Source: Methanolobus sp. WCC4
Lineage (GTDB): Archaea > Halobacteriota > Methanosarcinia > Methanosarcinales > Methanosarcinaceae
Direction of reading: 5' to 3'
Assembly (NCBI RefSeq): GCF_038022665.1
Contig: NZ_CP150629.1
Coordinates: forward strand, 826,480-850,479
DNA: 24,000 bases
Shown here piece by piece: positions 2,429-19,403 of this stretch. The position numbers and the translations under genes were made by a program. Within the stretch, counting starts at the first letter, position 1, and each line of letters starts with the position of its first letter. The notes under the pieces were generated by a model that was not told the DNA's origin, did not search any database, and saw only the letters and a program-made list of their open reading frames with translations.

Positions 2429-3882
2429 ACTTTCACCATCCTCCTATTGTTCCTCTTTCTTTTTATCCATGTTCCCGGCATAAGCAGCAGTATCAATGGA
2501 ATTATCTCTATTCTGCCAAACAGCATATCTATTATCAATACCGCTTTCAGTAGAATGGGCATGGAAGCACCGGTCACTCCCGAGGAAAGTCCCACAGTGC
2601 TCAGGGCGCTCGATGATTCGAAGACTGCATTGCTTGTATCAACCCCATAAAGCATGAAAATGAATGATGAGATGACCAGTATCAGAGTATAGAGCAGCAT
2701 GAATGTCACAAGATTGTATATCTCATCACTCTCTATGACATGGTCCTCTATCTTCATGGGGGTTATTGTTTCTCTGGGAAGGAACAATCTCAGCAGTACG
2801 TTATGTACCACTTTAAAAAGCAAAAGAACTCTGAACACTTTGATACCACCGGCAGTGGATCCCATACTTCCTCCTATCCACATCATGAATATCAAGACAG
2901 CTTTTGAAGCCTCGGACAGGATAGAAAGGTCGAATGTAGAATAGCCTGCTGTGGTGGATGCAGATATTATCTGGAAAAGGTTGTCCTTGATACTATTATA
3001 TTCAAATTCCTCTCTTGATAATGTGAATGCGAATATGATCGCTCCCAATAACAGCATCCCCAGGAAATATCTCAGTTCCCTGTTAACAAAGAACTTCTCC
3101 GGTTTCTTCAAAAGATACGGATAGAGCACAAAGCTCACCGCACCAAGGAGGCATGATATACTGATAGCAGCAGGTATGAGATTGCCCTGATATGCTCCTA
3201 TGCTATCACCCTGTGTTGAGAATCCCCCTGTTGATACACAACAGAATGCATGGCATATGGAATCAAAGAGTGACATCCCACTTATTAATAACAGTACTAT
3301 AGATACCAGAGTTATGATAATGTACACCTTGCCGAGTGTACGTGTTGTCGATATCACAGTTGGTTTGATCTTCATGTCGCCGTAGTTGGCTTTGTATATC
3401 CTGAAAGCTGTAGTTCCCGGCCTTATCAGAACAGAAAGCACAACAAGGATTATCCCAATTCCTCCCACCCACTGCCCCCATGAACGGGCAAACAGGAAAA
3501 CTGGTCCTGCGTCAGGAGGTGCAACGCTGAGTCCGGTAGTGGTCACAGCAGAAACACTTTCAAAATAAGCATCAAAGAATGGCATACCTGTTGACAGGGA
3601 CATGGGTATAGCGCTGAGAAAAGCGGAAAGCGGGAAAACCAGTGCCACTATAATGAGTGCTTCCTTTGTCTCAAGCTCGTACTCCGGTAAGGCTCTGTAG
3701 ATAATGGACCCAACAATGAAAACTGAAACAGCAGTACCTCCGTAATACATGGCTGCCTCAGTGTTAGAAAGCAAAAGTGCTGCCATCATCGGCACGATAA
3801 GTACGAACGCAAATGCTATCAGGTAATATCCCATGTACCTGGAAACCGCCTTTATGTCAACAGGGGTATGCAGTTCGTACAT
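2425..3882 (-). CDS. trkH: Trk-type K+ transporter membrane subunit TrkH
   Basis: Polytopic membrane protein with repeated selectivity-filter-like 'TTTG/STGGFS/TTAGYS/STVGLS' segments, 'GGSMGSTAGGIKVFR' and C-terminal 'FGRIEI'. The longest ORF starts at 3921. I prefer ATG 3882 (MYELHTPV...) because a TATA-like 'atatattttataaag' (3905-3919) sits ~28 nt upstream, which fits a leaderless mRNA. The shorter N-terminus also matches E. coli TrkH better. Confidence 0.88.
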   Translation of the reverse strand: MYELHTPVDIKAVSRYMGYYLIAFAFVLIVPMMAALLLSNTEAAMYYGGTAVSVFIVGSIIYRALPEYELETKEALIIVALVFPLSAFLSAIPMSLSTGMPFFDAYFESVSAVTTTGLSVAPPDAGPVFLFARSWGQWVGGIGIILVVLSVLIRPGTTAFRIYKANYGDMKIKPTVISTTRTLGKVYIIITLVSIVLLLISGMSLFDSICHAFCCVSTGGFSTQGDSIGAYQGNLIPAAISISCLLGAVSFVLYPYLLKKPEKFFVNRELRYFLGMLLLGAIIFAFTLSREEFEYNSIKDNLFQIISASTTAGYSTFDLSILSEASKAVLIFMMWIGGSMGSTAGGIKVFRVLLLFKVVHNVLLRLFLPRETITPMKIEDHVIESDEIYNLVTFMLLYTLILVISSFIFMLYGVDTSNAVFESSSALSTVGLSSGVTGASMPILLKAVLIIDMLFGRIEIIPLILLLMPGTWIKRKRNNRRMVKV

Positions 3883-3904
3883 AGGTAATAATGCTCCCTG
3901 AAAC

Positions 3905-3984
3905 TTTATAAAATATATCATGTATGGGCTGTCTTCATCCTGCCTTTTAGTATCCAGTCTCCCTGAGAGGAAGCTTAAATATAT
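3905..3984. promoter_or_regulatory. divergent promoter region (TATA-like boxes for trkH and tgtA)
   Basis: 'tttataaaatatat' (3905-3919) lies ~28 nt from trkH ATG 3882. 'ttaaatatat' (3975-3984) lies ~26 nt from tgtA ATG 4006. Neither gene has an SD, which suggests leaderless transcripts. Confidence 0.35.
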
Positions 3985-4005
3985 CTTGACCTCATCTACA
4001 GGATC

Positions 4006-5472
4006 ATGTCACAATTCGATATAATCCATAAGGATGCAGCAGGGCGCATCGGTAAACTGACAACTCCTCACGGGGTTGTGGAAACCCCTACTGTGATGCC
4101 TGTCATCAATCCTAACATTCAGACCATAAAACCTTCAGAGATGAGGGATTTCGGTGCTGAGATACTTATCACCAATTCATATATCATCTACCGCAAGGAT
4201 GAGTTAAGGGAAAAGGCACTCAAGGACGGTCTGCATGCATTGCTTGATTTTGACGGTCCTCTTATGACCGATTCTGGTTCCTTCCAGCTTTCCGTCTACG
4301 GTGAAGTAGAGGTCACAAATGAACAGATCATCGATTTCCAGCAGAAGATCGGTACGGATATCGGTGTCCCTCTTGATATCCCCACACATCCTGATGTCTC
4401 CTATGAGAAAGCGAAGGAAGATATGGATATCACTATAGAGCGTCTCAAGGAAGCAAGAGGGCTTGTGAAGGATGGTATGCTCCTTGCAGGTCCTGTACAG
4501 GGTGCCACTTACAAAGACCTCCGTGAAGAGTGTGCCCGTGAGCTTTCAGACGTTGGCTTTGATGTCTATCCTTTCGGGGCTGTTGTGCCACTCATGGAAT
4601 CATACCGCTATGCGGACCTTGTGGATGTTATTGCTTCAGCTAAAAAGGGTCTTGACCCTACAGCACCTGTGCACCTGTTCGGAGCCGGTCATCCAATGAT
4701 GTTCGCTCTTGCCGTTGCGCTGGGTTGCGACCTGTTTGACTCAGCAGCCTATGCACTCTATGCAAAGGACAGACGCTACATAACCTCAAGGGGTACATAT
4801 CATGTGGACCAGCTCAAATACCTGCCATGTTCCTGTCCTGTATGTATGGCACATACTGCAGAGGAGTTGAAAAAGGCACACAACTGTACCGAACTTCTTG
4901 CAAGACACAACCTCTATGTCACATTTGAAGAGGTGCGTGAGGTCAAACAGGCCATATGGGAAGGCAATCTTCTGGAGCTTGTAGAACAGCGCTGCCGTTC
5001 ACACCCAAGGATGCTGGAAGCATTGAAGCAGATGTACACTTATTCCCCATGGCTGGAAGAGTGCGACCCTTCATCCAAGTCCACATTCTTCTACTGCGGA
5101 CCGGAATCCGCAAAGAGGCCAGAGGTCCTGCGTTTTAACAAACAACTGGAAAGGCTTAGCATCGAAGGGTCTGTGCTTATCAGGGCATATCCAACGAAAA
5201 TAGACAAAGAGTATGATAATGTCATGATGTTCAAGCCCCCATTCGGTTCTTATCCACAGGAACTTGCAGAGGTCTATCCTTTCAATGCAGAGGTTGTAAG
5301 GACACCTGACCACGAGTCACTTGAAACTGCATATCAGAACACCATCAAGCTTGTGGAATTGAACCCTGATGCAACCTATACTTTCCTGATGAATGACAGG
5401 TTCGAACACCCTCTTGTGGAAAAACTTGCAGAAATGGACAACTTCACAGTCGTTCCTCCAAAGAATGACTGA
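4006..5472 (+). CDS. tgtA: archaeosine tRNA-guanine(15) transglycosylase (ArcTGT), short form without an obvious PUA domain
   Basis: 488 aa. TGT-family N-terminus 'GRIGKLTTPHGVVETPTVMPV', 'ILITNSY', 'LMTDSGSFQ', and Zn site 'CSCPVC...H'. The C-terminal ~120 aa shows no PUA-like pattern. Confidence 0.88.
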   Translation: MSQFDIIHKDAAGRIGKLTTPHGVVETPTVMPVINPNIQTIKPSEMRDFGAEILITNSYIIYRKDELREKALKDGLHALLDFDGPLMTDSGSFQLSVYGEVEVTNEQIIDFQQKIGTDIGVPLDIPTHPDVSYEKAKEDMDITIERLKEARGLVKDGMLLAGPVQGATYKDLREECARELSDVGFDVYPFGAVVPLMESYRYADLVDVIASAKKGLDPTAPVHLFGAGHPMMFALAVALGCDLFDSAAYALYAKDRRYITSRGTYHVDQLKYLPCSCPVCMAHTAEELKKAHNCTELLARHNLYVTFEEVREVKQAIWEGNLLELVEQRCRSHPRMLEALKQMYTYSPWLEECDPSSKSTFFYCGPESAKRPEVLRFNKQLERLSIEGSVLIRAYPTKIDKEYDNVMMFKPPFGSYPQELAEVYPFNAEVVRTPDHESLETAYQNTIKLVELNPDATYTFLMNDRFEHPLVEKLAEMDNFTVVPPKND

Positions 5473-5512: not shown

Positions 5513-5526
5513 AAATTACATATAAG
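5513..5526 (+). promoter_or_regulatory. TATA-like box for the eanB-eanA-sufS-sufE operon
   Basis: 'aaattacatataag' is centred ~26 nt upstream of ATG 5547. No SD is present, which implies a leaderless first gene. Confidence 0.3.
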
Positions 5527-5546: not shown

Positions 5547-6806
5547 ATGGGAGTTATTTTAACTGACGATCTATTGGACAATATAGATGGATATAAGCTG
5601 GTCGATATAAGGTCGGTTGATGCTTATAATGGCTGGAAGGAGAACGGGGAGGCAAAAGGCGGTCACATCAAAGGTGCAAAGTCTCTGCCATACAAATGGT
5701 TACATTATATAGACTGGATAGAGATCGTCAGGAACAAAGGTATAGTGCCTGATGATTCCCTGGTCATCTATGGTTATGATCAGGAAAGGGCAGAAGAGGT
5801 TGCAAGGCAGTTTGAAAGGGCCGGTTATCCAGATGTTGCCGTTCTTGACTCATTTTCCGAATGGGTTGAAAAGGACCTGCCAATGGAACATCTTGAAAGA
5901 TACAGGCAGCTTGTTTCGGCAGACTGGCTTAACCAGTTGATCAGCACAGGGAATGCTCCTGAATACGACAATGACAGGTTCGTGGTGTGCCATGGTCACT
6001 ACAGGAATCCTTCTGATTATGAAGAGGGACATATCCCCGGGGCGATATCAATTGATACGAATTCTCTTGAATCCACTGAGACGTGGAATCGTCGCTCGCC
6101 TGAAGAGATAAAAGAGACTCTGGAAAATGCAGGTATAAGTTCTGATACCACAGTGGTCCTTTATGGAAGATTCTCATTCCCTAACAATGATGACCCCTTC
6201 CCCGGGAGCAGCGCAGGTCATCTTGGATCTATAAGGGCTGCATTCATAATGCTCTATGCCGGGGTAAAGGATGTTCGCATACTTAACGGCGGACTTCAGT
6301 CATGGCTTGACTCCGGATATGCTATAACAAAAGAACCGGTCAGCAAGGACAGAGTATCTTTCGGAGTTGATATCCCTCAGAAACCTGAGATAGCTGTTGA
6401 TCTGGAGGAGGCAAAGGATATCCTTGCATCGCCTGACAAGAACCTGGTATGTGTCAGAAGCTGGAGAGAATACATAGGGGAAGTTAGTGGTTACAACTAC
6501 ATTGAGAAGAAGGGTAGGATCCCTGGTGCAGTGTTCGATGATTGTGGTTCGGATGCCTACCACATGGAGAACTACAGGAACCTTGACCATACCATGCGTG
6601 AATATCACGAGGTTGCAGAAAGCTGGGAAAAGATAGGTATAACCTCTGATAAGCGCAATGCTTTCTACTGTGGGACCGGCTGGAGGGGCAGCGAGGCTTT
6701 CTTCAATGCGTGGCTCATGGGTTGGGATAAGGCAGCCGTCTATGATGGTGGATGGTTCGAATGGAGCAACAATGACCTTCCATTTGAGACCGGGGTGCCT
6801 GAGTAA
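5547..6806 (+). CDS. eanB: EanB-type rhodanese-domain sulfurtransferase (hercynine C2 sulfurtransferase / anaerobic ergothioneine synthase)
   Basis: 419 aa with tandem rhodanese-like domains ('GGHIKGA', 'EGHIPGA', 'KGRIPGA'). Active-site loop is 'FYCGTGWRGSE' (Cys375; TGT at 6669-6671). Counting back from that Cys gives Tyr at -1, -37 and -59 and Cys at -42 and -73. As I recall them, this is the same spacing as Chlorobium limicola EanB Tyr411/375/353 and Cys370/339 relative to Cys412. The stop overlaps the start of an EgtD-like gene (TAATG). Confidence 0.8.
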   Translation: MGVILTDDLLDNIDGYKLVDIRSVDAYNGWKENGEAKGGHIKGAKSLPYKWLHYIDWIEIVRNKGIVPDDSLVIYGYDQERAEEVARQFERAGYPDVAVLDSFSEWVEKDLPMEHLERYRQLVSADWLNQLISTGNAPEYDNDRFVVCHGHYRNPSDYEEGHIPGAISIDTNSLESTETWNRRSPEEIKETLENAGISSDTTVVLYGRFSFPNNDDPFPGSSAGHLGSIRAAFIMLYAGVKDVRILNGGLQSWLDSGYAITKEPVSKDRVSFGVDIPQKPEIAVDLEEAKDILASPDKNLVCVRSWREYIGEVSGYNYIEKKGRIPGAVFDDCGSDAYHMENYRNLDHTMREYHEVAESWEKIGITSDKRNAFYCGTGWRGSEAFFNAWLMGWDKAAVYDGGWFEWSNNDLPFETGVPE

Positions 6807-7768
6807 TGATAATTGAGGATTTCATGCCCCCGACAGGGGAAAGTTCAGTAAGGGACAGACTCCTGGCCGGTCTGAGGTCATACCCCAAAATGATCCCATC
6901 AATGTTCTTCTATGATCACAGGGGTTCGGAACTGTTCGAGCATATCACGGGACTGGAGGAATACTATCCTCCTAAGATCGAGATACCACTTCTTGCTTCA
7001 ACTGCCAGAAAGTTGAGACATGAATTAAAGGACTGCGATATTGTAGAGCTTGGAAGTGGTGACTGCTCGAAGATATCCGTTTTCCTTGATGAAGTGCCGG
7101 AAGATATCCGTGCTACCATGGCCTACTATCCGGTTGACGTCTGTAAGGAGGCAATTGAGAAATCGGCGTGTAATCTCCATGTAAAGTACCCTGAGATGGA
7201 GATACATGGCATAACTGCTGATTTCCTGGAACATATGGAGAAGATCCCGGGTGACCGAAAAAGGTTCTTCTGTTTCTTCGGGAGTACAATAGGGAATCTC
7301 AGTGAGGCAAAGGCGATGGAGTTCATGGGCAATCTGGGTGAGGTCATGAACGACGAAGACAGGCTCATACTTGGCATGGATATGGTGAAGGACATCGATG
7401 TCATCGAAAGGGCCTATAACGACAGTCAGGGTGTGACCGCTGAATTCAACAAGAACATACTGAACGTCACAAACGATAACCTTGGAACCAACTTCGACCC
7501 GGACGATTTTGAGCATGTGGCCTTTTTCAACAGGGAATATTCAAGGATCGAGATGCACCTGAGGGCAAAGAGGGATATGGAAATAACGGTTCCGGGGCTG
7601 AATGAAAAGATGATCATTGTGAAAGATGAGATGATACATACAGAGAACTCACACAAATATACTGCCAAAGATATCGAAAAACTGGCAGACGCAGCGGGAC
7701 TTGATGTGGAGGAGGTCTTTACCGATGACAGGAAATGGTTCTCTCTTGTTGAGATGGTGAAAAGATGA
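6806..7768 (+). CDS. eanA: EgtD/EanA-type SAM-dependent L-histidine N-alpha-methyltransferase (hercynine synthase)
   Basis: 320 aa. Collinear with mycobacterial EgtD as remembered: 'FFYDHRGSELFEHITGLEEYYPPK', 'IVELGSGDCSK', 'FFGSTIGNL', 'LGMDMVKD', 'ERAYNDSQGVTAEFNKNIL', 'FEHVAFFN...RIEMHLRA', 'IHTENSHKY'. Confidence 0.88.
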   Translation: MIIEDFMPPTGESSVRDRLLAGLRSYPKMIPSMFFYDHRGSELFEHITGLEEYYPPKIEIPLLASTARKLRHELKDCDIVELGSGDCSKISVFLDEVPEDIRATMAYYPVDVCKEAIEKSACNLHVKYPEMEIHGITADFLEHMEKIPGDRKRFFCFFGSTIGNLSEAKAMEFMGNLGEVMNDEDRLILGMDMVKDIDVIERAYNDSQGVTAEFNKNILNVTNDNLGTNFDPDDFEHVAFFNREYSRIEMHLRAKRDMEITVPGLNEKMIIVKDEMIHTENSHKYTAKDIEKLADAAGLDVEEVFTDDRKWFSLVEMVKR

Positions 7769-8946
7769 TAGATGCTGCAAAGGATTTCCCCATACTTGAA
7801 AAAGAGGTCTATGGCAGAAGACTTGTCTATCTCGATAGTGCAGCAACGACCCAGAAACCGGAATGTGTGATCGATACGATTGCCGGGTTCTACAGGTCGG
7901 ATTACAGTAATATCCATCGTGGCGTTCACTACCTGAGCGAGGTCTCAAGTGAGAGATATGAGAAGGCAAGGGAGAAGGTCAGTGAGTTCATAGGTGCCGG
8001 AAACCCTGCTGAAGTGACGTTCACTGCCGGTACGACAGATTCCATCAACCAGGTTGCACGCTCACTGGAACCATCTTTGAGAGGAAACGAGGTCATCGTG
8101 ACAGGTGTGGAACACCATTCCAATATCGTATCCTGGCAGATGGCAGGAGCTATTTTGAAGGCAATTCCGATAGATGATGATTGTAATCTGCTGGCGGATT
8201 CTCTGGAGATAACTGACAGAACGAAATTGATAGCTATCAGCCATGCTTCCAATGTCCTTGGCTCTGTCAATGATATCAAAGATATCGTCAGTATTGCAAG
8301 GGACCATGATATTCCGGTTTTAGTGGATGCTGCCCAGTCGATACAGCATATGTCTCTTGATGTGAAGGACATTGGCTGTGATTTTCTTGCATTCTCCGGT
8401 CACAAGATGTATGCATCCACCGGTGTGGGTGTTCTTTATACAAGTGAACGTTTCAGTGACATGATGCCGGCAAGGGGAGGAGGCGGTATGGTGGATAAGG
8501 TGACCCTTGAGAAAACCACCTATCTGGACCCTCCCCTGAGATATGAGGCGGGGACGCCGGATATTGCAGGAGCGATAAGCATCGGTGCAGCGATTGATTA
8601 TATGCAGAAGATAGGCATGGATAAGATAAAAGAGCATGAGCATGAGGTCTATTCCTATGCAAGGGACAGGCTGCTTGAAATGGATGATGTGACAGTCTAT
8701 GGTAACACTGATGAGATGTGCGGTGCCATCTCTTTCAACCTGAAAGGTGTCCATCACTATGATGCAGGTCTGATCATGGATAAGATGGGAATAGCCGTCA
8801 GGACCGGACACCACTGCGCTCAGCCATTGATGAGAACACTTGGAGTTGAAGGTACGGTAAGGGCAAGCTTTGCACTATATAATACTAAGGAAGATGTCGA
8901 CATGCTGGTCGAAGGCATAGAGAAGGTAAGGATGCTGCACTCATGA
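7765..8946 (+). CDS. sufS: group-II (SufS/CsdA-type) PLP-dependent cysteine desulfurase
   Basis: 393 aa. Motifs 'YLDSAATTQKP', 'NIHRGVH', PLP-lysine 'FSGHKMY', and the group-II signature with catalytic Cys 'RTGHHCAQPL'. ATGA overlaps at both ends (7765-7768 and 8943-8946). Confidence 0.9.
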   Translation: MIDAAKDFPILEKEVYGRRLVYLDSAATTQKPECVIDTIAGFYRSDYSNIHRGVHYLSEVSSERYEKAREKVSEFIGAGNPAEVTFTAGTTDSINQVARSLEPSLRGNEVIVTGVEHHSNIVSWQMAGAILKAIPIDDDCNLLADSLEITDRTKLIAISHASNVLGSVNDIKDIVSIARDHDIPVLVDAAQSIQHMSLDVKDIGCDFLAFSGHKMYASTGVGVLYTSERFSDMMPARGGGGMVDKVTLEKTTYLDPPLRYEAGTPDIAGAISIGAAIDYMQKIGMDKIKEHEHEVYSYARDRLLEMDDVTVYGNTDEMCGAISFNLKGVHHYDAGLIMDKMGIAVRTGHHCAQPLMRTLGVEGTVRASFALYNTKEDVDMLVEGIEKVRMLHS

Positions 8947-9350
8947 GCGATGCCATTCAGGATGAGATTATAAAGGAGTTCGAAGGACTGGAGTGGTTCG
9001 ACAAGTACGAACTGCTGATATCCTCGGCCAGGGAGGTCGAGACCATGGCTGAAGAGTTCAGGACAGAGGAGAATACGATAAGCGGATGCCAGTCAAAGGT
9101 CTGGATAAGGAGTTATATCAATGGTAAGAGATTGCATTTCGAGTATGACAGTGATGCCATGATAACCAAAGGTATCGTTGCCTTAGTACTCAGGGTGCTG
9201 AACAACCGTTACCCTCAGGATATCCTTGATACGGACCTGTATTTCATTGATGAGATAGGTTTGAAGTCTAATCTTTCTCCAGCGAGGGCTGATGGTCTGA
9301 TGTCGATCATCAGGAGGATTCGGGAGATCGCTGAGGAAGGAGTTAGTTAG
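8943..9350 (+). CDS. sufE: SufE-type sulfur acceptor protein
   Basis: 135 aa. Persulfide-acceptor loop 'ISGCQSKVWI' (compare E. coli SufE 'GCQSQVW'), 'DSDA.ITKG', 'LSP.R..GL..' at the C-terminus. Translationally coupled to sufS. Confidence 0.85.
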   Translation: MSDAIQDEIIKEFEGLEWFDKYELLISSAREVETMAEEFRTEENTISGCQSKVWIRSYINGKRLHFEYDSDAMITKGIVALVLRVLNNRYPQDILDTDLYFIDEIGLKSNLSPARADGLMSIIRRIREIAEEGVS

Positions 9351-9574
9351 GATTTTTTGGATTTTTACTGTGTGTAGGATCTAGTAATATTGACTATTGT
9401 CTATACATTGAGATGTTTGGACAATATACATTTATCTATGTGTGATCATCAAGTTTCAAACGATTTCTGTGTAGTTGTTCTTTTTAGATTCATAGTAATA
9501 AATGATTAGGTTATTTACAATACCTGCAAAAGTTAATATTTAATAGAGGTGTTAAATCTGTCAGGAGATGCCTT

Positions 9575-10426
9575 ATGTTTGAAGTAAAAATACAACACAT
9601 TGATGCTGAAAAGCGTGCAATTCCTGTTCTCAAAATACAGTTACACCTTAAAAATCCTGAGCTATACCCCATCGAGTTACTAGGCTATAAAATAAACCTA
9701 CGTTTTGCAGGAGTTGTTGTAGGAAGTACTTCTAGTTATAGCTCTATAAGAATTGATAATCATGGCTCTCATTACTTCAATGAGGATATTCAAATAACTC
9801 CTTATATTTTTGAAATCATAGATCAATCTAGAAAAAATGGTGATGTCCACATAAGTGGTTCTCTTAACTGCCTTTATTTAAATTTATCAATAGATAAAGC
9901 CAATCAGACTCCGCAGGTATTTGATAGGCAATTTGATTCTTATAAATTATCCCAACTTGATTGGATTAATTTAGCAACGAAAATGGGGTATACTCGATAC
10001 AAGATTTTTGAAATGATCTGGCCAGATATTCCTCAACTAGATGAGTTGAATAATATAATTAGAGGCCTAGATGAAGCTCAAACTCTGTTCTATGAAGGTA
10101 AAAATAATGAAGTGGTATCAAAGTGTAGATTAGTCTTGGAAGAGCTTATGCCAATTGTTACAGGAAAAAATTCCAGCAACAAGATTGAAATGAAAAAAGA
10201 AATGGCTGATATTGTTGACTATGGTTCATTCCATAAAGATGGTGAAAGTAGTAAAAGTGAAAAGATAGAAGATTTGAGACAAAAGATTTGGCGTTATCAT
10301 CATATTGGTCCACACTGCGGATACCCTGTTACAAGAGCAGATGCAGAACTTTCAATCATGCTATGTCTTTCTATGGTCAGGTATTATTCTGTTCAGATAA
10401 ACAAACTAAATGAAAGTACAGTGTAA
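9575..10426 (+). CDS. orphan hypothetical protein in a low-GC islet; possible N-terminal beta-sandwich plus C-terminal HEPN-like helical domain
   Basis: 283-aa ORF with SD 'aggag' at 9563-9567. Sampled 60-nt lines have ~25-37% GC, against ~45-57% in flanking genes (hand counts). The C-terminus 'LRQKIWRYHHIGPH...VTRADAELSIMLCLSMVRYY' fits an R-x6-H plus [DE]A-helix pattern seen in DUF4145/HEPN domains. This is a weak, pattern-level call only. Confidence 0.6.
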   Translation: MFEVKIQHIDAEKRAIPVLKIQLHLKNPELYPIELLGYKINLRFAGVVVGSTSSYSSIRIDNHGSHYFNEDIQITPYIFEIIDQSRKNGDVHISGSLNCLYLNLSIDKANQTPQVFDRQFDSYKLSQLDWINLATKMGYTRYKIFEMIWPDIPQLDELNNIIRGLDEAQTLFYEGKNNEVVSKCRLVLEELMPIVTGKNSSNKIEMKKEMADIVDYGSFHKDGESSKSEKIEDLRQKIWRYHHIGPHCGYPVTRADAELSIMLCLSMVRYYSVQINKLNESTV

Positions 10427-10599
10427 TCATATATATTTCGAGCCTATATGGTACTATAATAGTGAGGTTTAAGGACTTGTTTAAGCATTCAGACATTCCT
10501 TTTATTTCACTTTTCAAAATCAATTCGGTTTTTTCCGCTTTACCCTAATACTAATATACGATACTGGTGATTAGAACCTATAATCTACAGGTGATATAC

Positions 10600-11565
10600 T
10601 TGGTTTCCACTTCAGGCTCTAAAACACGAAATCCCTATCTGGAAATGTTAAGGCCGGAGATAGCGGATATGGACTTTGCCCTTCCTGCAGCGAGTGCTTT
10701 GCTGGCAGCCTATCTTGCTACAGGCTCTTTCCCTATGCTTATTCCTTTCATAATTGCAGTGATCGGCGGTTATGCGGCTATCACAAGTTCCTATGTGTAT
10801 AATGACTACTGTGATGTCGATATCGATGAGATAAATCTTCCCAACCGTCCACTGGTATCAAACAGACTCAAACGTTCTCAGGCTCTAAAGTATGCTCTTC
10901 TCCTTTTCATCATCGCCAGTGTGGCGGCATTGGTCCTGAATGTCGAGTCCTTTGTGGTGCTTCTCATAGCTGTGGGAACCATAAGTGTCTACTCAGCAGT
11001 GGCTAAAAGGGCCACGTTCCTGAGCTTTGTTCCGGTAGGTATCGCTTACGGTCTTGTTCCAATAGGCATCTGGCTTGCATTCGACTCAGCCGGGATCATA
11101 GGATATCCGGGGCTTTTCGGAACTGTCCCTTCCTATGGTGACATACTTCCTGTTCCTGCGATCTTCCTTGGCCTGATGATGTGTTTCACCGACTGGGGCT
11201 TTACACTCTCAGGTGTGGCAAGGGATGTTGAAGGTGACAGGGCAAGGGGTGCACCCACATTCCCTGTGACATTCGGTATTCCCGCAACAGCAAAGTTTGT
11301 GACCTTCATGTGGGTAGTAGGTGTTATCGCCTCTATTGCCATAGGTCTGACAGCGAAGATCGGTCCTGTCTATTTTGCAGGCGCATTGCTCGCAGGTGGC
11401 TGGATGCTCACACAATCATTTGATTTCATAAAGAACCCGACAGAGGGGCGCGGTGGAAGACTGTTCCTGCAGGGCTCCAGATACAGGGGCATAATGTTCG
11501 GTTCTCTCATACTTGACGTAATACTTTGCATACTCGTACCGGCATATTCCGGTATCCTGTGGTAA
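10600..11565 (+). CDS. UbiA-superfamily membrane prenyltransferase
   Basis: First Asp-rich motif 'YNDYCDVDIDEINLPNRPL' and second motif 'DVEGDRARGAPTFPVTFG'. About 8 hydrophobic segments. The ORF opens at GTG 10567. I prefer TTG 10600 because a strong SD 'aggtgat' (10589-10595) sits 4 nt upstream. ATG 10645 would remove the conserved 'YLEMLRP' N-terminal helix. Confidence 0.85.
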   Translation: MVSTSGSKTRNPYLEMLRPEIADMDFALPAASALLAAYLATGSFPMLIPFIIAVIGGYAAITSSYVYNDYCDVDIDEINLPNRPLVSNRLKRSQALKYALLLFIIASVAALVLNVESFVVLLIAVGTISVYSAVAKRATFLSFVPVGIAYGLVPIGIWLAFDSAGIIGYPGLFGTVPSYGDILPVPAIFLGLMMCFTDWGFTLSGVARDVEGDRARGAPTFPVTFGIPATAKFVTFMWVVGVIASIAIGLTAKIGPVYFAGALLAGGWMLTQSFDFIKNPTEGRGGRLFLQGSRYRGIMFGSLILDVILCILVPAYSGILW

Positions 11566-11579
11566 CTTTGAGGTTCAAC

Positions 11580-12737
11580 ATGGACGCAGATATCATTGTA
11601 ATAGGTGCTTCACCTGCAGGGGTGATGGCAGCAAGGAACGCATCAAGAAAAGGATGCAAGGTAATACTCCTCGATAAAAAGGAAGCTGCAGGTGTGCCAA
11701 CCCACCCTGCCAACACATTCTTCAAAGGTATGTTCGACCGTACAGGTGAGGAAGTGGACCAGAGCTATGTCATCAAGAATCTCAAGGGTGCCTACATCAT
11801 AGCACCGTCCGGCAAGAACGTCATCTTCGAGGGAGATGCCTACTTCCTTGACCGCAAGAAGTTCGACGAGTTCTACATCGAACAGGCAAAGGATGCCGGC
11901 GTGGATGTTCGCTTTGGTGTGGATGTTCTCAATGTTCTCAGGAAGGATTCCGGATTCATAGTGAGCACTTCAAAAGGCAAGGCAAAGTGTAAACTTGTCA
12001 TAGTCTCCGACGGTATCAATTCAAAGATAAGTGCACTTCTGGGCATGAAACCAATAAAGTATCCACAGGATATTGCCTGGTCACTGGAAGCTGAGATAGA
12101 AGCAGAGGGTATCGGTGAACCTGACCTGTTTGAGTACTATGTAGGTAATCATGCACCCGGCTGGAAATCCACATATTCACCATGCGGTGGTAACAGGGCA
12201 ACCCTTGGTATGTATGTCCGCAGACATGGCACGGATGTGTCCGACTTCTTCGATGCATGGCTTGAGAGGTTCAAGTCATTGAAAGGACTGGATGAGGTTA
12301 AGATCATCAGCAAGTCCGTTGGTGGCGACCCTATAGTTGCCATTCCCGGTGATATCGTGGCCGATGGTGTCATGATAGTGGGAGGTTCTGCAGCACAATC
12401 CGGTATAGGCTATGGTATGCATGCAGGACAGATGTGCGGTGACGTTGCAGCCGACGCGATAAAGAAAGGCGATACATCAAAGAGGTCCCTGTCAGAGTAC
12501 AGGAGACTCTGGAACGATGCCTACAGGACAGAGTACTACCTTGGAAGGTTCGCCATGGAGACCATGAGGAAGATGACCGATAAGGAGATCGACGGTCTGA
12601 TGGAGGTCTTCGAGGGTGAGGACCTTAAGGTACTTAGCGGAACTCCTTTCAATCAGGCATTGCAGGTATCGAAGATGATATTGAAGAACAATCCTTCTTC
12701 TATCCTCTCATATAGAGCTGTATTCAGATCAAAGTGA
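11580..12737 (+). CDS. geranylgeranyl-reductase-family FAD-dependent oxidoreductase
   Basis: FAD dinucleotide fold 'DIIVIGASPAGVMAARNASRKGCKVILLDKKE'. 'VIVSDGINSK' and 'MIVGGSAAQ' are typical of GGR/ChlP homologues. Start ATG 11580 has SD 'gaggt' (11570-11574). The upstream extension to 11526 would overlap the UbiA gene. Confidence 0.85.
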   Translation: MDADIIVIGASPAGVMAARNASRKGCKVILLDKKEAAGVPTHPANTFFKGMFDRTGEEVDQSYVIKNLKGAYIIAPSGKNVIFEGDAYFLDRKKFDEFYIEQAKDAGVDVRFGVDVLNVLRKDSGFIVSTSKGKAKCKLVIVSDGINSKISALLGMKPIKYPQDIAWSLEAEIEAEGIGEPDLFEYYVGNHAPGWKSTYSPCGGNRATLGMYVRRHGTDVSDFFDAWLERFKSLKGLDEVKIISKSVGGDPIVAIPGDIVADGVMIVGGSAAQSGIGYGMHAGQMCGDVAADAIKKGDTSKRSLSEYRRLWNDAYRTEYYLGRFAMETMRKMTDKEIDGLMEVFEGEDLKVLSGTPFNQALQVSKMILKNNPSSILSYRAVFRSK

Positions 12738-12740
12738 GCC

Positions 12741-13886
12741 ATGAATAAGAAATATTATTTTTATAAGAACCCCTTTTTCAAAGTATATGCCCAGATCGAG
12801 AATGACAGGGTGAAGATGAAGACCTCGGGTATAGCATCTTCGGTCATGGGTTCTTTAGTCTCGGATATGATGGAGATATTCGAGGATACAAAACCATCAA
12901 AGGTGGAAAATGATAAACTGATCTATTCCACATGGATGCCCCCGATCCCAAGCAAGGCCTTCGACCGTCTTGTGTCAAGCCAGATGCGTGCCATGAGGGG
13001 TAAGTTCGTTCCAGAACAGATCACCATCTCCATTACAGAGGAATGTCCCAACAGGTGTCTTCACTGTGCACTGCCGGACACGAAGAATAAGGCAAAACTG
13101 GACCCTGATGCCGTGAAAAGTGTCATCGACCAGACACAGGACATGGGGACCACGCTCATCATCTTCGATGGAGGTGAGCCTCTTCTCTACGATGGTCTTG
13201 AGGACCTGATATCCTATGTAGACCAGTCAAAGGCGATACCGGGTCTTTTCACATCCGGTGTGGGTATGACCCCTGAGCGTGCTCAAAGCCTTAAACGGGC
13301 AGGCCTTTCAATGCTCAGCATAAGTCTTGACAGTGCAAATGCAGAAGGTCACGACTATATGCGTGGTCGTCCCGGGGTTTTCAAAGAGGCTACCAACGCT
13401 ATAAAATACGGTATTGATGCAGGCCTCCTGGTTGGTATCTATGTTGTCCTTTCACCACGGAATGTCGATGAACTGGATGAGTTCTACGAGCTTGCAAAGG
13501 AGCTGGGTGTCCATGAGCTGTCTTTCTATGAGATCGTCCCTACAGGAAGATGGGAGGGTCATGAGAAAGAGGTCGTCTCACCTGAAGGTCTGAAGAAGTT
13601 CGATGATTTCGTGGAACGTACTTCCCATGCAGAAGGACCCAGGGTTTTCCCGATACCTCAGATAATCAGGAAGATGGGATGTTTTGCAGGGCGCAAATGG
13701 CTACATGTGACTCCTGAAGGTAATGTCCTCCCATGTGCGTGCATGCCGAAGCCATATGGCAACATCCATGATGAGAGACTGGCTGACATCTGGAAGAAGA
13801 TATACAAAGACCCTGTTTTCAACTCAGGTCCGTGTCTTATGAGGGATGCTGAGTTCAGAAAGGTCCACCTTGGACTTGAAAAGTAA
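12741..13886 (+). CDS. radical-SAM enzyme with C-terminal twitch/partial-SPASM auxiliary-cluster domain; substrate unknown
   Basis: Radical-SAM triad 'CPNRCLHC', 'IIFDGGEPLL', and C-terminal 'GCFAGRKWLHVTPEGNVLPCAC' (C-x12-G-x4-C-x-C) plus a later 'GPC'. The ~95-aa N-terminal extension has no motif I recognise. It starts 3 nt after the GGR stop. Confidence 0.85.
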   Translation: MNKKYYFYKNPFFKVYAQIENDRVKMKTSGIASSVMGSLVSDMMEIFEDTKPSKVENDKLIYSTWMPPIPSKAFDRLVSSQMRAMRGKFVPEQITISITEECPNRCLHCALPDTKNKAKLDPDAVKSVIDQTQDMGTTLIIFDGGEPLLYDGLEDLISYVDQSKAIPGLFTSGVGMTPERAQSLKRAGLSMLSISLDSANAEGHDYMRGRPGVFKEATNAIKYGIDAGLLVGIYVVLSPRNVDELDEFYELAKELGVHELSFYEIVPTGRWEGHEKEVVSPEGLKKFDDFVERTSHAEGPRVFPIPQIIRKMGCFAGRKWLHVTPEGNVLPCACMPKPYGNIHDERLADIWKKIYKDPVFNSGPCLMRDAEFRKVHLGLEK

Positions 13887-15558: not shown

Positions 15559-15783
15559 TTCATCAAACCTGAAATTTGAATCCCGTATTGAAACAGTATT
15601 TAAGTGCCGAGATTGATGTGAAATACGTTACATTGCTTTTAAGGTTTTCGATAGAGGCAGATCAACAGAAAATCTATTTTCCGGATATCTTCAAAAGAAG
15701 GCAAAGAGTGTACTCATTTTATATATAATTACTATAATATAATACTCCCGATATATCCGTGTAATCAATAATGGGTGACAATT

Positions 15784-16584
15784 ATGGAAACCACCGAAAC
15801 ACAATCATGCAGCACCGGAGACTTTGATATTACGAAAGATGTACTTGATCAGCTACCATGCATGGTCATGGCGATAGACCGGGATTATAACGTATTGAAC
15901 CTCAATGCAGTAGGATGCAACTGGCTTGAAGAGGACCTTGAACACGTTAAAGGTAGAAAATGCTATGACCTTGTACAATCCCCTCACTGCAGAACCGATA
16001 ATTGTCGTGTGAAACAGGCAATGGAAAATGACCGTGTATTTGTCTGGAGGAATGAGATGACAGCGGCAGGACGTACGTTCCCTGTAGAATATACTGCATC
16101 TCCTTTGAAGGACAAGGCCGGTAACATTGTAGGCGGACTCGAATATGTCATCGATATAACAGAGAGAGTGAAGATCGAGGCAGAGGTCAGGGCACACAGC
16201 CGAACCATAATGGAACTCTCAACACCTGTCATCAAACTGTGGGATGGAATAGTGATCCTTCCGCTCGTTGGTGTAATTGACACCATGCGCGCCCAGCAGA
16301 TAATAGAGAACCTGTTATCTTCCATAGTCGAGAATGAGGCAGCTGTGGCAATACTCGATGTGACCGGTGTCCCTATGATAGATACCAGTGTTGCGCAGCA
16401 CATACTCAAGACCGTGAGCGCAGGGAAAATGCTAGGTGCAGAGGTTATCATCACCGGATTCAGTCCTAATGTCGCACAGACCCTTGTGACACTTGGTGTC
16501 AATCTGGGTGACATAAAGACCAGTGGTTCACTACGTGATGGTGTCTCAAAGGCATTTGACATTCTGGGCAAGAAACTTGTTTGA
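15784..16584 (+). CDS. rsbR: RsbR-like stressosome scaffold/sensor: N-terminal Cys-rich PAS domain plus C-terminal STAS domain
   Basis: PAS-like N-terminus ending 'GGLEYVIDITER'. The C-terminus 'STPVIKLWDGIVILPLVGVIDTMRAQQI...AILDVTGVPMIDTSVAQHILK...MLGAEVIITGFSPNVAQTLVTLG' is the RsbR-type STAS. The ORF opens at GTG 15775. ATG 15784 is preceded by 'gggtga'. Confidence 0.85.
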   Translation: METTETQSCSTGDFDITKDVLDQLPCMVMAIDRDYNVLNLNAVGCNWLEEDLEHVKGRKCYDLVQSPHCRTDNCRVKQAMENDRVFVWRNEMTAAGRTFPVEYTASPLKDKAGNIVGGLEYVIDITERVKIEAEVRAHSRTIMELSTPVIKLWDGIVILPLVGVIDTMRAQQIIENLLSSIVENEAAVAILDVTGVPMIDTSVAQHILKTVSAGKMLGAEVIITGFSPNVAQTLVTLGVNLGDIKTSGSLRDGVSKAFDILGKKLV

Positions 16585-16599
16585 TTCACAGGTGGTTCC

Positions 16600-16974
16600 A
16601 TGCAGATACCAATACTTAAACTGAAGAACATCCTCCTCACATCGATTCAAAGCGATATGACCGATGATGATGCCCTGAGGTATCAGTCGGATGTTGTTTC
16701 CTTTCTGGAAAAGAGCGATGCAAAAGGCCTGATAATAGATATCACTGCAATGGATATCGTTGATTCCTTCATGGCCCGTGTGATCAACGAGACCGCGAGA
16801 ATGGCACGCCTTATGGGTGCAAAGGTCGTTCTCTGTGGTATGCAGCCAATGGTTGCACTGACACTGGTGGAAATGGGACGTGAGCTTATAGGGGTAGAGA
16901 CTGCCCTGAATCTTGACAAGGGATTTGATAAGCTTCTGGAAATGATCGCTGAAGGAGTTGATGATCATAAGTGA
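16600..16974 (+). CDS. rsbS: RsbS-like single-STAS stressosome protein
   Basis: 124 aa. Collinear with B. subtilis RsbS as remembered: 'IPILKLKNILLTSIQ', the phospho-acceptor context 'DIVDSFMARV', and 'LMGAKVVLCGMQPMVALTLVEMG'. SD 'aggtgg' lies upstream. Confidence 0.88.
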   Translation: MQIPILKLKNILLTSIQSDMTDDDALRYQSDVVSFLEKSDAKGLIIDITAMDIVDSFMARVINETARMARLMGAKVVLCGMQPMVALTLVEMGRELIGVETALNLDKGFDKLLEMIAEGVDDHK

Positions 16975-17368
16975 GAAAAGTATAGAGCTTAAGATAGAGG
17001 ATGATATTCTCATAGCCAGGCAGGTTGCAAGGCAGGAGATGGCTGATATCGGCTTTGGTTCCGCAGATCAGACCCGTATGGCTACAGCTATCTCTGAACT
17101 GGCAAGGAATGTGATCAAATACGCAGGACATGGCGTATGTCATCTAACCACCGAGTCTACACCTTCTGAGATAGTGATCAAAGTGCAAATAGAGGATTAT
17201 GGTCCCGGTATAGAGGATATCGATAAGGCCATGGAAGATGGCTATACCACCGGTGGTGGCCTTGGTGCAGGTCTTCCCGGTGCAAAGCGGCTGGTCAATG
17301 ATTTCTCCATTGAATCAAGTCCCGGATTAACAAAAATAAACCTGGAAATGAGTCGTCCTAATGTCTGA
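16961..17368 (+). CDS. rsbT: RsbT-like serine/threonine kinase (HATPase_c_2, anti-sigma-regulatory-factor family)
   Basis: About 135 aa. 'ELARNVIKYA' (N-box), 'DYGPGI' (G1), 'TTGGGLGAGLPGAKRL' (G2). It overlaps the rsbS 3' end, with SD 'gaaggag' at 16951-16957. Confidence 0.82.
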   Translation: MIISEKSIELKIEDDILIARQVARQEMADIGFGSADQTRMATAISELARNVIKYAGHGVCHLTTESTPSEIVIKVQIEDYGPGIEDIDKAMEDGYTTGGGLGAGLPGAKRLVNDFSIESSPGLTKINLEMSRPNV

Positions 17369-17373
17369 TAAGA

Positions 17374-17817
17374 ATGTCTGATAACTGTGATAACACGTTC
17401 CCCGGAGATGATCAGGAGGTAACGATAGAGGTAAAGGACCGTCCTCATGTTGCAAACGTCCAGACGAGTGCAAGATGGGTGGCAAAGAAGCTTGGTTTCT
17501 CTCATATCGATGTATGCAGAGCAGCTTCATCGGCATCAGAACTTGCTTCGAACCTGATATTTCATGCCAGCTACGGGGGTTCCATAACCATCAGGGCTGT
17601 TATGAAAGATGGAGTTGTGGGTATAGAGATCGTTTCCTGCGATGAAGGCCCCGGTATAAAGGACGTGGAACTTGCCCTGCAGGATGGTTATTCCACCGGT
17701 CCGGGTCTCGGTTCAGGACTTCCCGCAGTTAATAGGGCTATGGACGAACTCGAAATCACAGTAACAGACGATTCACATACACTAATAATAACAAGGTTGT
17801 GGCATTCATGCGAGTAG
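17374..17817 (+). CDS. second RsbT/RsbW-like HATPase_c_2 kinase paralogue
   Basis: 147 aa with 'ELASNLIFHA', 'DEGPGI', 'STGPGLGSGLPAVNRA'. It follows the same motif order as the preceding gene. Confidence 0.78.
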   Translation: MSDNCDNTFPGDDQEVTIEVKDRPHVANVQTSARWVAKKLGFSHIDVCRAASSASELASNLIFHASYGGSITIRAVMKDGVVGIEIVSCDEGPGIKDVELALQDGYSTGPGLGSGLPAVNRAMDELEITVTDDSHTLIITRLWHSCE

Positions 17818-18380
17818 CAACGGAATCCCGTTCATTCAATAATGACGTACATTGCGGTGACCAGTGTGACTGGTGGATAGAGGATGATATAGTGACCCTG
17901 TGCATGATCGATGGTCTGGGGCATGGGGAACGTGCTGAAGAGGCAGCAAAAGAAGCTCTGGATTACGTATCCTGTCACCTGGACGATTCCCTCGATAGAT
18001 TGTTCTCAGGTTGCAATAAGGCTATCAGGCATACAAGAGGTGCAGCAATGAGCATTGCACGTATCGATCAGAACGATTCCAGCCTTGAATATGCTGGTAT
18101 CGGGAATACCCGTACAATGATGTATGGTGAGAAGTCATCTCATCTCCCTTCAAGCTGGGGTATAGTGGGTGGAGGATATAGGCATCTGCATGTGGAGAGG
18201 AGTGACCTCTCTCCCTATGACCTTGTGATCATGTGGACTGATGGCATCCCCGAGAGTATCAAGCTATCATCGTATGACAGATACCTGCTGCAGGATGAAC
18301 AACAACTGGCAAAGAGGATACTTGAGGACTACGGACGCATGACGGACGACGCGACCATACTTGTGTATGCAAAGGGGTGA
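17808..18380 (+). CDS. rsbX: RsbX-type PP2C/SpoIIE-family phosphatase
   Basis: 'HCGDQCDWW', 'MIDGLGHGERA', 'TRGAAMSIARI', 'AGIGNT', 'MWTDGI' match the short RsbX-like PP2C layout. The ORF opens at GTG 17799. ATG 17808 overlaps the preceding stop region. Confidence 0.82.
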   Translation: MRVATESRSFNNDVHCGDQCDWWIEDDIVTLCMIDGLGHGERAEEAAKEALDYVSCHLDDSLDRLFSGCNKAIRHTRGAAMSIARIDQNDSSLEYAGIGNTRTMMYGEKSSHLPSSWGIVGGGYRHLHVERSDLSPYDLVIMWTDGIPESIKLSSYDRYLLQDEQQLAKRILEDYGRMTDDATILVYAKG

Positions 18381-18464
18381 TCCACTATTAACAAAGCTGA
18401 TTTCAATGAGCGGTATTATGATATCCTGAAGGGCTATGTATCAACCCGTGAAGAGAAATATCTG

Positions 18465-19403
18465 ATGAGGTCAGATGACCTTGGGTACGAACTTGTAAGG
18501 TTCAATGTTCCTCCTGAAGATATCATCGAAATGCACGAAATGGCTGTAAAGAAGCTGGCAACAGATCTTCCTGCAAAGAGCATGATGGAATGTGTGGGTT
18601 TCCTTTCAACTCCTCTTGTAGAGGTCATGATGGCATACGGTCTTGCATTCAGGCAATGGATAGAGGACCTTGAAAAGAGCAAGAGGGAAGTGGAGGAATA
18701 TGCCCGGGAATTGCAGCATTCCAATGACCTCAAAGAGCTCTTTGCAGATATAATGCGTCACGATCTTTTGAATCCTGCTTCCCTTGTCAATGGTTTTGTC
18801 TCGATCCTGCTTGAATGGGAAGATGATGAAAAGAAAAGGTCATTGCTTTCAAATATCAATAAGAGCAACAAGAATCTTATCGATATCATAGAGAAGGCAG
18901 CGGAATTTGCCAAACTGGATTCAGTTGAAGGAATTGAGTTCTCTTCAATGGATATTGGTTCCATTCTCGGGGAAATAGTCGACAGCTTCATGCCAAGATT
19001 CGAGGAAAGCGAGATGACCGTTGCTCTTGATACTGAGGGTTCTTATCTCACAATGGCCAATTCTGTTATCGAGCAGGTCTTCATGAATCTTATTTCCAAT
19101 GCCATCAAGTACAGTCCCCGTGGCAGTCACGTCCATATCACTATACTGGATGAAGGGGATCAATGGAATGTCAATGTGAAGGACCAGGGAAGTGGCATCC
19201 CTGAGAGTGACAGGGAATTTATCTTCACCCGTTTCTCAAGACTTGATAAGGTCAAGAAAGGAAGTATCAAGGGAACAGGTCTCGGACTTGCGATCGTGCA
19301 CAAGGTAGTTACCCTCCACAATGGCAGTGTAGGTGTGGATAGCAATTCTCCCGAAGCTGGCAGTACTTTCTGGGTGAGGCTCAACAAGGTACGTACAACT
19401 TAA
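18465..19403 (+). CDS. histidine kinase with RsbU-N-like (RsbT-docking) N-terminal domain, HisKA and HATPase_c; the true start is probably upstream (about 18387)
   Basis: N-terminus 'VPPEDIIEMHEMAVKKL...LVEVMMAYGLAFRQW' parallels B. subtilis RsbU 'IPPEEIISIHRKVLKEL...LIEVMIGYGMAYQEH' as remembered. H-box 'MRHDLLNPA', N-box 'NLISNAIKYS', G1 'DQGSGI', G2 'GTGLGLAIV'. Coordinates are given from the first ATG. The frame is open back to 18381 (see findings). Confidence 0.85.
   Translation: MRSDDLGYELVRFNVPPEDIIEMHEMAVKKLATDLPAKSMMECVGFLSTPLVEVMMAYGLAFRQWIEDLEKSKREVEEYARELQHSNDLKELFADIMRHDLLNPASLVNGFVSILLEWEDDEKKRSLLSNINKSNKNLIDIIEKAAEFAKLDSVEGIEFSSMDIGSILGEIVDSFMPRFEESEMTVALDTEGSYLTMANSVIEQVFMNLISNAIKYSPRGSHVHITILDEGDQWNVNVKDQGSGIPESDREFIFTRFSRLDKVKKGSIKGTGLGLAIVHKVVTLHNGSVGVDSNSPEAGSTFWVRLNKVRTT

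Follow-up and report, generated by a model that had tools for sequence, protein, structure and literature searches.

Known Anaerobic Ergothioneine Systems and the Methanolobus Locus

The closest described counterparts of the locus reported here, an operon with the gene order eanB-eanA-sufS-sufE in the methanogen Methanolobus sp. WCC4, are the EanA and EanB enzymes of Chlorobium limicola (Burn et al. 2017; Leisinger et al. 2019; PDB 6H98 and 6KTV). The operon lies in a 24,000-nucleotide stretch of contig NZ_CP150629.1 (hereafter the window), and it probably encodes a self-contained, oxygen-independent pathway to the antioxidant ergothioneine in which EanB is loaded with sulfur delivered by SufS and SufE. 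The two organisms share the same core enzymes and the adjacency of eanB and eanA, and the active-site loop and tyrosines of EanB are identical in both. However, the C. limicola type comprises just two genes, whereas in Methanolobus the translational coupling extends from eanBA to sufS and sufE. In a Chlorobiota relative the order is pgi-eanB-eanA, with neither sufS nor sufE within ~3.5 kb, and the C. limicola-type EanA class is ~30% identical to the Methanolobus EanA.

The way in which EanB acquires its sulfur in vivo is debated, the original work having used IscS and later work having argued for polysulfide. According to reviews, Burn et al. detected the eanA-eanB pair in over 20 anaerobes, both bacterial and archaeal, and observed that Escherichia coli IscS plus cysteine supported EanB turnover, and Cheng et al. 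showed that only Cys412 is needed for EanB catalysis. Beliaeva and Seebeck described EanB as polysulfide-dependent, and MES, a metallopterin-dependent synthase of ergothioneine, which has a fused desulfurase, as using cysteine; desulfurases co-encoded with EanB are not mentioned by these authors. Synteny of eanA and eanB in methanogens (Methanococcoides vulcani and Methanohalophilus mahii) has already been recorded in reviews.

MES resembles the Methanolobus system in being an anaerobic route with a dedicated desulfurase tied to the C-S catalyst, and its cysteine sulfur travels through a protein persulfide relay, as we propose for the Methanolobus operon. On the other hand, in MES an IscS/NifS-type desulfurase forms one protein with a molybdopterin enzyme, whereas Methanolobus has a free SufS, a SufE carrier, and a rhodanese catalyst. 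The Pfam scan revealed no molybdopterin domain in the operon, which therefore does not belong to the MES group.

With regard to sulfur mobilization, the SufS-SufE and CsdA-CsdE pairs of E. coli are, like the Methanolobus pair, two-component systems of a type II desulfurase and a SufE/CsdE acceptor, and the equivalents of E. coli Cys51, Cys364, and the pyridoxal 5'-phosphate (PLP) lysine are all kept in Methanolobus SufE and SufS. SufE is known to raise SufS activity ~30-45 fold (PMC8931425). Unlike the E. coli SUF system, the Methanolobus genes have no adjacent SufBCD, and the proposed acceptor is a rhodanese of secondary metabolism instead of an iron-sulfur (Fe-S) scaffold. Transfer of a persulfide from a PLP-dependent desulfurase to the cysteine of a rhodanese domain, as proposed here, is also known from IscS to YnjE or ThiI, from NFS1 to TUM1, from ABA3 to STR18, and from natural fusions of a cysteine desulfurase with a rhodanese (CD-Rhd) (PMC8931425). 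Those examples have no SufE-type intermediary, whereas the Methanolobus proposal inserts a SufE carrier. Finally, the mycobacterial EgtABCDE pathway shares with the operon an EgtD-family methyltransferase and a class V PLP enzyme within the cluster. In mycobacteria, however, the latter is EgtE, a C-S lyase acting on the sulfoxide formed by the O2-dependent EgtB; Methanolobus has SufS instead and no EgtB.

Identification of the Four Genes

The four open reading frames (ORFs) of the operon are encoded on the same strand, occupying positions 5547-9350 (+) of the window. The product of ORF1 is 100% identical to a database EanB of Methanolobus sp. WCC4. ORF1 could be aligned over its full length with C. 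limicola EanB (598 bits, E = 6e-179, 62% identity across 414 amino acids). Its next-best relative was YnjE, a three-domain rhodanese which is also the relay partner of IscS (269 bits), and ordinary thiosulfate/mercaptopyruvate sulfurtransferases scored at most 83 bits. Against the NCBIfam 3-mercaptopyruvate sulfurtransferase model, ORF1 reached 62 bits, with a cut-off of 250.

Within the catalytic domain (query positions 306-407), ORF1 aligns with C. limicola EanB without gaps, and therefore residues can be matched one to one. Cys375, located in an FYCGTGWR loop, corresponds to the catalytic Cys412, and Tyr374, Tyr338, Tyr316, Cys333, and Cys302, all N-terminal to it, correspond to Tyr411, Tyr375, Tyr353, Cys370, and Cys339, respectively. 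In addition, Thr377 and Arg380 are equivalent to Thr414 and Arg417. Thus, all members of the EanB catalytic set named in the literature (Tyr353, Cys412, Thr414, and Arg417; PMC10903977, PMC9103826) are present in ORF1 as Tyr316, Cys375, Thr377, and Arg380. The FYCGTGWR loop was found in 79 of 80 related loci (see below), and the gene adjoins a gene for a histidine N-alpha-methyltransferase, the expected genomic partner of EanB. On the basis of its sequence, ORF1 is EanB, with a predicted activity of converting hercynine to ergothioneine.

An earlier sequence-only reading of this locus had called gene 1 an EanB and not a generic sulfurtransferase, placing tyrosines at -1, -37, and -59 and cysteines at -42 and -73 from Cys375 with the spacing of C. 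limicola EanB, and both points are borne out by the scores and the alignment. Its description of a tandem-rhodanese protein was right as to the rhodanese fold, but Pfam recognizes three rhodanese-like stretches in ORF1 and not two. It had also presented these tyrosines and cysteines as mechanistically important; this is correct for Cys412 and was overstated for Cys370 and Cys339, as Cys412 is the only cysteine required. The assignments of the other three genes in the same reading (EgtD/EanA, SufS, and SufE) agree with the profile searches that follow.

ORF2 passed the threshold of the egtD equivalog model TIGR03438 (345.6 bits, cut-off 290.9) and matched Pfam Methyltransf_33 with 348.7 bits, and its score against the EasF model (185.5 bits) was below the cut-off of 205.55. 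It is also related to the Mycobacterium smegmatis EgtD structures (197 bits), with the GSTIGN, YYP, RAY, and TE-S motifs aligned. The histidine-binding residues of M. smegmatis EgtD are, as we take them to be, Tyr56, Asn166, Tyr206, Met252, Glu282, and Ser284. At these positions ORF2 is identical to 4UY6 (YYP, GSTIGN, RAY, Met250, Glu280, and Ser282).

ORF3 scored 508.6 bits against the SufS model TIGR01979 (cut-off 475.1), 415 bits against Bacillus subtilis SufS structures, and 366 bits against those of E. coli. The PLP lysine is Lys214 in an SGHKM motif, and the persulfide cysteine is Cys351 in RTGHHCAQP. We also considered whether gene 3 might encode EgtE, the ergothioneine C-S lyase, and rejected this candidate on its TIGR04343 score of 85.9 bits (cut-off 400).

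ORF4 matched the Pfam SufE domain over its full length (PF02657, 134.8 bits, model positions 2-120 of 121). Its sole cysteine, Cys49, lies in a GCQSKVW motif and is aligned to Cys51 of E. coli SufE, to which the protein is 36% identical. On the other hand, ORF4 fell below the cut-offs of the NCBIfam SufE/CsdE equivalog models (NF006792, 88.8 vs. 160 bits; TIGR03391, 82.5 vs. 136.4 bits). Judged by these matches, ORF4 is a SufE-family protein and not an equivalog of the E. coli type.

Operon Organization and Expression Signals

The eanB/eanA junction is TAATG (positions 6804-6808), in which eanA starts at the stop codon of eanB, and both the eanA/sufS and the sufS/sufE junctions are ATGA (positions 7765-7768 and 8943-8946, respectively); these overlaps, on which the sequence-only reading had built its case for an operon, are exact in the sequence. 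Start/stop overlaps of this kind are frequent in operons and, taken singly, prove little. The features of the operon are listed in table 1.

Table 1. Genes and putative expression signals of the eanB-eanA-sufS-sufE operon (positions in the window)
Feature	Description	Position	Strand	Basis
eanB	ORF1, 419 amino acids; rhodanese-like ergothioneine synthase (hercynine C2 sulfurtransferase)	5547-6806	+	Similarity and residues
eanA	ORF2, 320 amino acids; S-adenosylmethionine (SAM)-dependent L-histidine N-alpha-trimethyltransferase, EgtD family, forming hercynine	6806-7768	+	Profile models
sufS	ORF3, 393 amino acids; type II PLP-dependent cysteine desulfurase	7765-8946	+	Profile and motifs
sufE	ORF4, 135 amino acids; persulfide acceptor and activator of SufS	8943-9350	+	Pfam domain and Cys49
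Putative archaeal TATA box	TACATATAAG, with an A-rich stretch resembling a B recognition element (BRE) immediately 5'	5517-5526	+	Position and conservation only
Oligo-T tracts	Two tracts directly 3' of the sufE stop codon: T6 (9353-9358) and T5 (9362-9366)	9353-9366	+	Sequence reading

The putative TATA box is centered ~25 nucleotides ahead of the eanB ATG. Its ATATA core (positions 5520-5524) lies 22-23 nucleotides 5' of this ATG and is invariant at that spacing in all nine Methanosarcinales eanB loci, the flanking genes of which differ. This suggests that an ATATA promoter travels along with the cassette, and its closeness to the ATG points to a leaderless transcript or one with a very short leader. 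At the other end of the operon, the oligo-T tracts probably serve as an archaeal signal for transcription termination, and a 225-nucleotide AT-rich gap then precedes the next ORF. We predict that eanB, eanA, sufS, and sufE form a single transcription unit.

No Rfam family was found in or near the operon when an upstream regulatory RNA was sought. Scanning the window ORFs of at least 110 amino acids across the 24 kb revealed no sufB, sufC, or sufD, and without these scaffold genes the locus does not represent a SUF Fe-S assembly operon (sufABCDSE). The possibility of a recent foreign island was also considered and rejected, as the GC content of the operon (47%) shows no compositional anomaly relative to that of the window (45.7%).

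Conserved Linkage of eanB with sufE and sufS

When one genome per species was scanned, EanB relatives were detected in at least 594 genomes; the 80 loci with the highest similarity to the query were analyzed by BLAST annotation with the window proteins. Such a survey for sufSE beside eanAB had been suggested in the sequence-only reading. We found sufE downstream of eanB in 30 of the 80 loci: as eanA-sufS-sufE on the same strand in 17, as sufE alone, usually within 45 nucleotides, in 12, and as sufS-sufE in one. In a further 30 loci eanA alone follows eanB, and 18 loci have no eanA, sufS, or sufE 3' of eanB. If the count is restricted to loci for which 3.2 kb or more of downstream DNA is available, sufE is present in 27 of 62 (44%), which is an upper estimate for the family. 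Because a genome carries only one or two sufE genes, the contribution of chance to the adjacency of eanB and sufE is negligible. All linked SufS and SufE copies retain the catalytic lysine and cysteine residues.

The linked loci are spread over a broad taxonomic range. Among archaea they occur in Methanosarcinales (Methanolobus and Methanococcoides) and Thermoplasmatota, and among bacteria in Spirochaetota, Aminicenantes, Phycisphaerae, Elusimicrobia, a deltaproteobacterium, Eubacteriales, Krumholzibacteria, Bacteroidota, Ignavibacteria, Gemmatimonadota, and Acidobacteriota. The complete four-gene operon is found in Methanohalophilus, Methanococcoides, Methanosalsum, Thermoplasmatota, and at least eight bacterial groups, and the short eanB-sufE pair in Gemmatimonadota, Bacteroidota, and others. 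The four-gene version, which had been thought peculiar to this methanogen, is widespread instead. Nor are ergothioneine genes in a methanogen new as had been supposed, given the eanA/eanB synteny cited above. The linkage of sufSE with eanB, however, has no description in the searchable open-access literature, a scope outside which the primary EanB papers lie; as far as could be checked, therefore, the conserved sufSE linkage is undescribed, and eanAB in methanogens is not.

In the complete genomes of Methanohalophilus mahii, Methanosalsum zhilinae, and Methanococcoides vulcani, all four genes are present with 4-nucleotide overlaps at all three junctions, so that not only the gene order, conserved across many phyla far beyond chance, but also the overlaps recur. 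The neighborhood of the operon is different in each of these three genomes, and in two of them the operon lies beside integrase or transposase remnants. These two are M. zhilinae (L089, positions 1-588 and 4425-4778) and M. vulcani (L090, positions 2495-4576), where the flanking remnants are of transposase, helix-turn-helix (HTH), or phage-integrase type. These remnants, and flanks that vary from genus to genus, hint at past mobility of the four-gene cassette. A mirror-tree test gave pairwise-identity correlations among the four proteins of r = 0.33-0.64 outside Methanosarcinales; such moderate values are compatible with inheritance as a cassette and are not decisive. No sufBCD families recur in the linked loci, and no fifth gene universally kept in them was found.

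A published census of 326 methanogen genomes reported SufE in 11, ten of which are Methanosarcinales, and classed it as an Fe-S factor. According to the same census, methanogens run SufBC, almost all of them without SufE. M. burtonii is listed as lacking SufE, and among the EanB matches listed none was named as a protein of this species. In its supplement, the gene ID of SufE is next to that of SufS in Methanohalophilus euhalobius and Methanolobus profundi, which is consistent with an eanB-eanA-sufS-sufE operon in these two genomes. The operon is thus a likely explanation for the rare Methanosarcinales SufE genes which were formerly counted as Fe-S factors.

A gene for a class I pyridine-nucleotide disulfide oxidoreductase (~460 amino acids; redox motif of the GGTCLNVGC type) is repeatedly found in the vicinity of ean clusters from several phyla (L008, L009, L017, L021, L043, and L056) and directly follows eanB in one locus (L076, positions 5923-7302); the window has none. 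This enzyme is a candidate for an ergothioneine-disulfide or persulfide reductase.

Phylogeny and Variation of EanB and EanA

In a neighbor-joining tree of 82 EanB proteins (200 bootstraps), a single branch separated 34 sequences, which are either linked to sufS/sufE or derived from Methanosarcinales, from the other 48. Of the 200 bootstraps, 111 reproduced the 34/48 split exactly, and 170 contained a split that deviates from it by no more than two taxa. C. limicola EanB is on the unlinked side, as are most of the sequences from Bacteroidota and Chlorobiota. Accordingly, the sole biochemically studied enzyme appears, from its position in the tree, to represent an EanB clade without SufSE partners. 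The frequencies of noncatalytic cysteines are shifted between the two clades, and the position equivalent to Cys339 is a cysteine in only 21% of the linked clade.

Two classes of EanA were observed among the 80 loci, which are ~45-52% and ~30% identical to the window EanA. The former was found in every sufSE-linked locus; the latter is typical of Chlorobiota and Bacteroidota loci without sufSE. Natural fusion of EanB and EanA in one ORF was detected in two metagenome-assembled genomes of Bacteroidales (L041, positions 6964-9168; L046, positions 8001-10202). In addition, an EanB of 711 amino acids from Spirochaetota (L006/P0055) contains an N-terminal NmrA-like NAD(P)-binding domain.

Proposed Sulfur Route and Alternatives

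Based on the predicted functions of the four proteins, the pathway would proceed as follows. EanA would trimethylate histidine to hercynine with SAM as the methyl source. SufS would take sulfur from L-cysteine and hold it as a persulfide on Cys351, from which it would pass to Cys49 of SufE, SufS being activated thereby. The sulfane sulfur would then be transferred to Cys375 of EanB, and the Cys375 persulfide would sulfurize C2 of hercynine to give ergothioneine. Expression, the product in Methanolobus, and above all the final hand-over to EanB are the steps that we infer. For that hand-over, direct transpersulfidation from SufE to EanB is slightly favored over an indirect route, because the linkage to eanB is tightest for sufE, including 12 loci without sufS. 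The genetic argument of the sequence-only reading for supply by SufS and SufE is strengthened by the conserved linkage of sufE, which lies downstream of eanB with or without sufS; the relay itself, as stated there, keeps the status of a proposal. An archaeal host that otherwise has no SufE plausibly needs the cassette to carry its own sulfur mobilizer.

Several points weigh against this relay. First, the relay is proposed for this organism from sequence and genetic linkage, and genomic data cannot tell direct persulfide transfer by SufE from a route via small polysulfides. According to a 2020 review, no archaeon had by then been found to contain ergothioneine. Second, reviews note the reinterpretation by Cheng et al., in which polysulfide is argued to be the direct substrate of EanB, and the location of Cys412 at the end of a 13 Å tunnel, where the loop of IscS or another desulfurase is unable to reach it. 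Third, more than half of the 80 sampled EanB loci have neither sufS nor sufE nearby, and since the sample consists of the loci closest to the query, the linkage frequency given above is biased upwards. Fourth, comparison of the two EanB clades revealed no convincing clade-specific surface or SufE-docking signature; a single column discriminates between them (Ala137 vs. Pro). Fifth, among the best 150 of 3766 matches in a SufE search, which were inspected for fusions, no EanB-SufE fusion was present. The only long match in that set (P0226, 560 amino acids) is a SufS-SufE fusion, and the other fusions join SufE to FeS_assembly_P or NifU_N, none of them to a rhodanese.

We also considered a SufE family dedicated to EanB and rejected this idea on the mixed context of the closest SufE relatives. 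One of these (P0122) is in an eanA-sufS-sufE cluster, and P0121, P0123, P0133, and P0144 are in unrelated or Fe-S contexts; apart from P0122, the close relatives are located beside nrdD, are beside or fused to FeS_assembly_P, are fused to NifU_N, or stand alone. It follows that the window SufE would have been recruited from a general SufE subfamily.

A first alternative is that SufS and SufE, though dedicated to the pathway, supply EanB only indirectly, by raising a local pool of low-molecular-weight persulfide or polysulfide (e.g., by release from the SufE persulfide), from which a small molecule would load Cys375 via the tunnel. Polysulfide is a competent direct donor in vitro, the active-site cysteine is buried behind 13 Å of tunnel, and neither a fusion among the best 150 SufE matches nor a docking signature speaks for protein contact. 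Nevertheless, such a supply would predict sufS as the retained gene, yet 12 loci have eanB-sufE without sufS, and free polysulfide would presumably be short-lived in the reduced, sulfide- and thiol-rich cytoplasm of a methanogen. We consider this indirect supply unlikely.

A second alternative is that SufS and SufE merely hitch-hike with eanBA and serve general sulfur trafficking (Fe-S clusters, thio-cofactors, or tRNA thiolation), EanB receiving its sulfur from elsewhere. In favor of this, the sequences of SufS and SufE are canonical, many EanB loci have neither gene, and close relatives of the window SufE are solitary or fused or adjacent to FeS_assembly_P and NifU_N. However, the linkage recurs in more than ten phyla in differing genomic contexts and follows one EanB clade, no sufBCD is adjacent, and SufE is otherwise nearly absent from methanogens, which use SufBC without it, making a passenger role quite improbable. 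Least credible of all is that the linked clade makes another 2-thioimidazole, or a selenium analogue through a selenocysteine-lyase activity of the SufS type: although this clade is phylogenetically apart from the sole characterized EanB and E. coli SufS/CsdB has been called a selenocysteine lyase by some PDB depositors, the literature-named Tyr353, Cys412, Thr414, and Arg417 are all retained, the partner methyltransferase scores above the cut-off of the histidine-specific EgtD equivalog model, and a published attempt at selenoneine synthesis with EanB failed.

Implications of a Possible SufE Carrier for EanB

Returning to the relay from SufS through SufE to EanB, the distribution of linked loci raises the tentative possibility that a large, multi-phylum clade of EanB uses SufE as its physiological persulfide donor, with the sulfur passing from SufS to SufE, EanB, and hercynine as a protein-bound persulfide throughout. 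If this is true, the dispute between desulfurase and polysulfide as the donor would be settled in a clade-dependent way, and SufE would be the first such carrier feeding a rhodanese in natural-product biosynthesis. C. limicola is a sulfur-oxidizing bacterium, rich in polysulfide. The eanB-sufE linkage offers a natural matched set of proteins for studying protein-to-protein persulfide delivery, and the donor may differ by clade.

It would also follow from the same reading that halophilic methylotrophic methanogens and Thermoplasmatota are the first archaeal ergothioneine producers shown. Methanogens that are strict anaerobes adapted to salt are thus a reasonable place to seek ergothioneine, which is a betaine thione. 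From a practical point of view, industrial routes based on EanB are limited by sulfur supply, and the SufSE module could be co-expressed with the enzyme.

Other Genes in the Window

The first 1535 nucleotides of the window comprise part of an rRNA operon, with the 3' part of the 23S rRNA (positions 1-1219), tRNA-Cys(GCA) (1316-1387), and 5S rRNA (1414-1535). The window also encodes the archaeal TgtA and the methanogenesis enzyme Mtd. Right after the operon, an ORF of 283 amino acids (9575-10426, +) matches neither a Pfam nor an NCBIfam model. The stretch around it has a low GC content of 33-38%, compared with 45.7% for the window, and no homolog was found beside the operon in related loci; this ORF may be a strain-specific insertion.

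Further downstream, a contiguous set of genes (15775-19403, +) encodes a partner-switching system of bacterial style, which consists of a PAS-STAS protein, two RsbW-like HATPase_c_2 kinases, a SpoIIE/PP2C phosphatase, and an RsbU_N-HisKA-HATPase kinase. To our knowledge, archaea have no sigma factors. Between the 283-amino-acid ORF and this set, three consecutive genes (10567-13886, +) encode a UbiA-family prenyltransferase, a flavoprotein of the geranylgeranyl-reductase family, and a radical SAM/SPASM enzyme, which could form a cluster for the modification of lipids or of methanophenazine-type isoprenoids.

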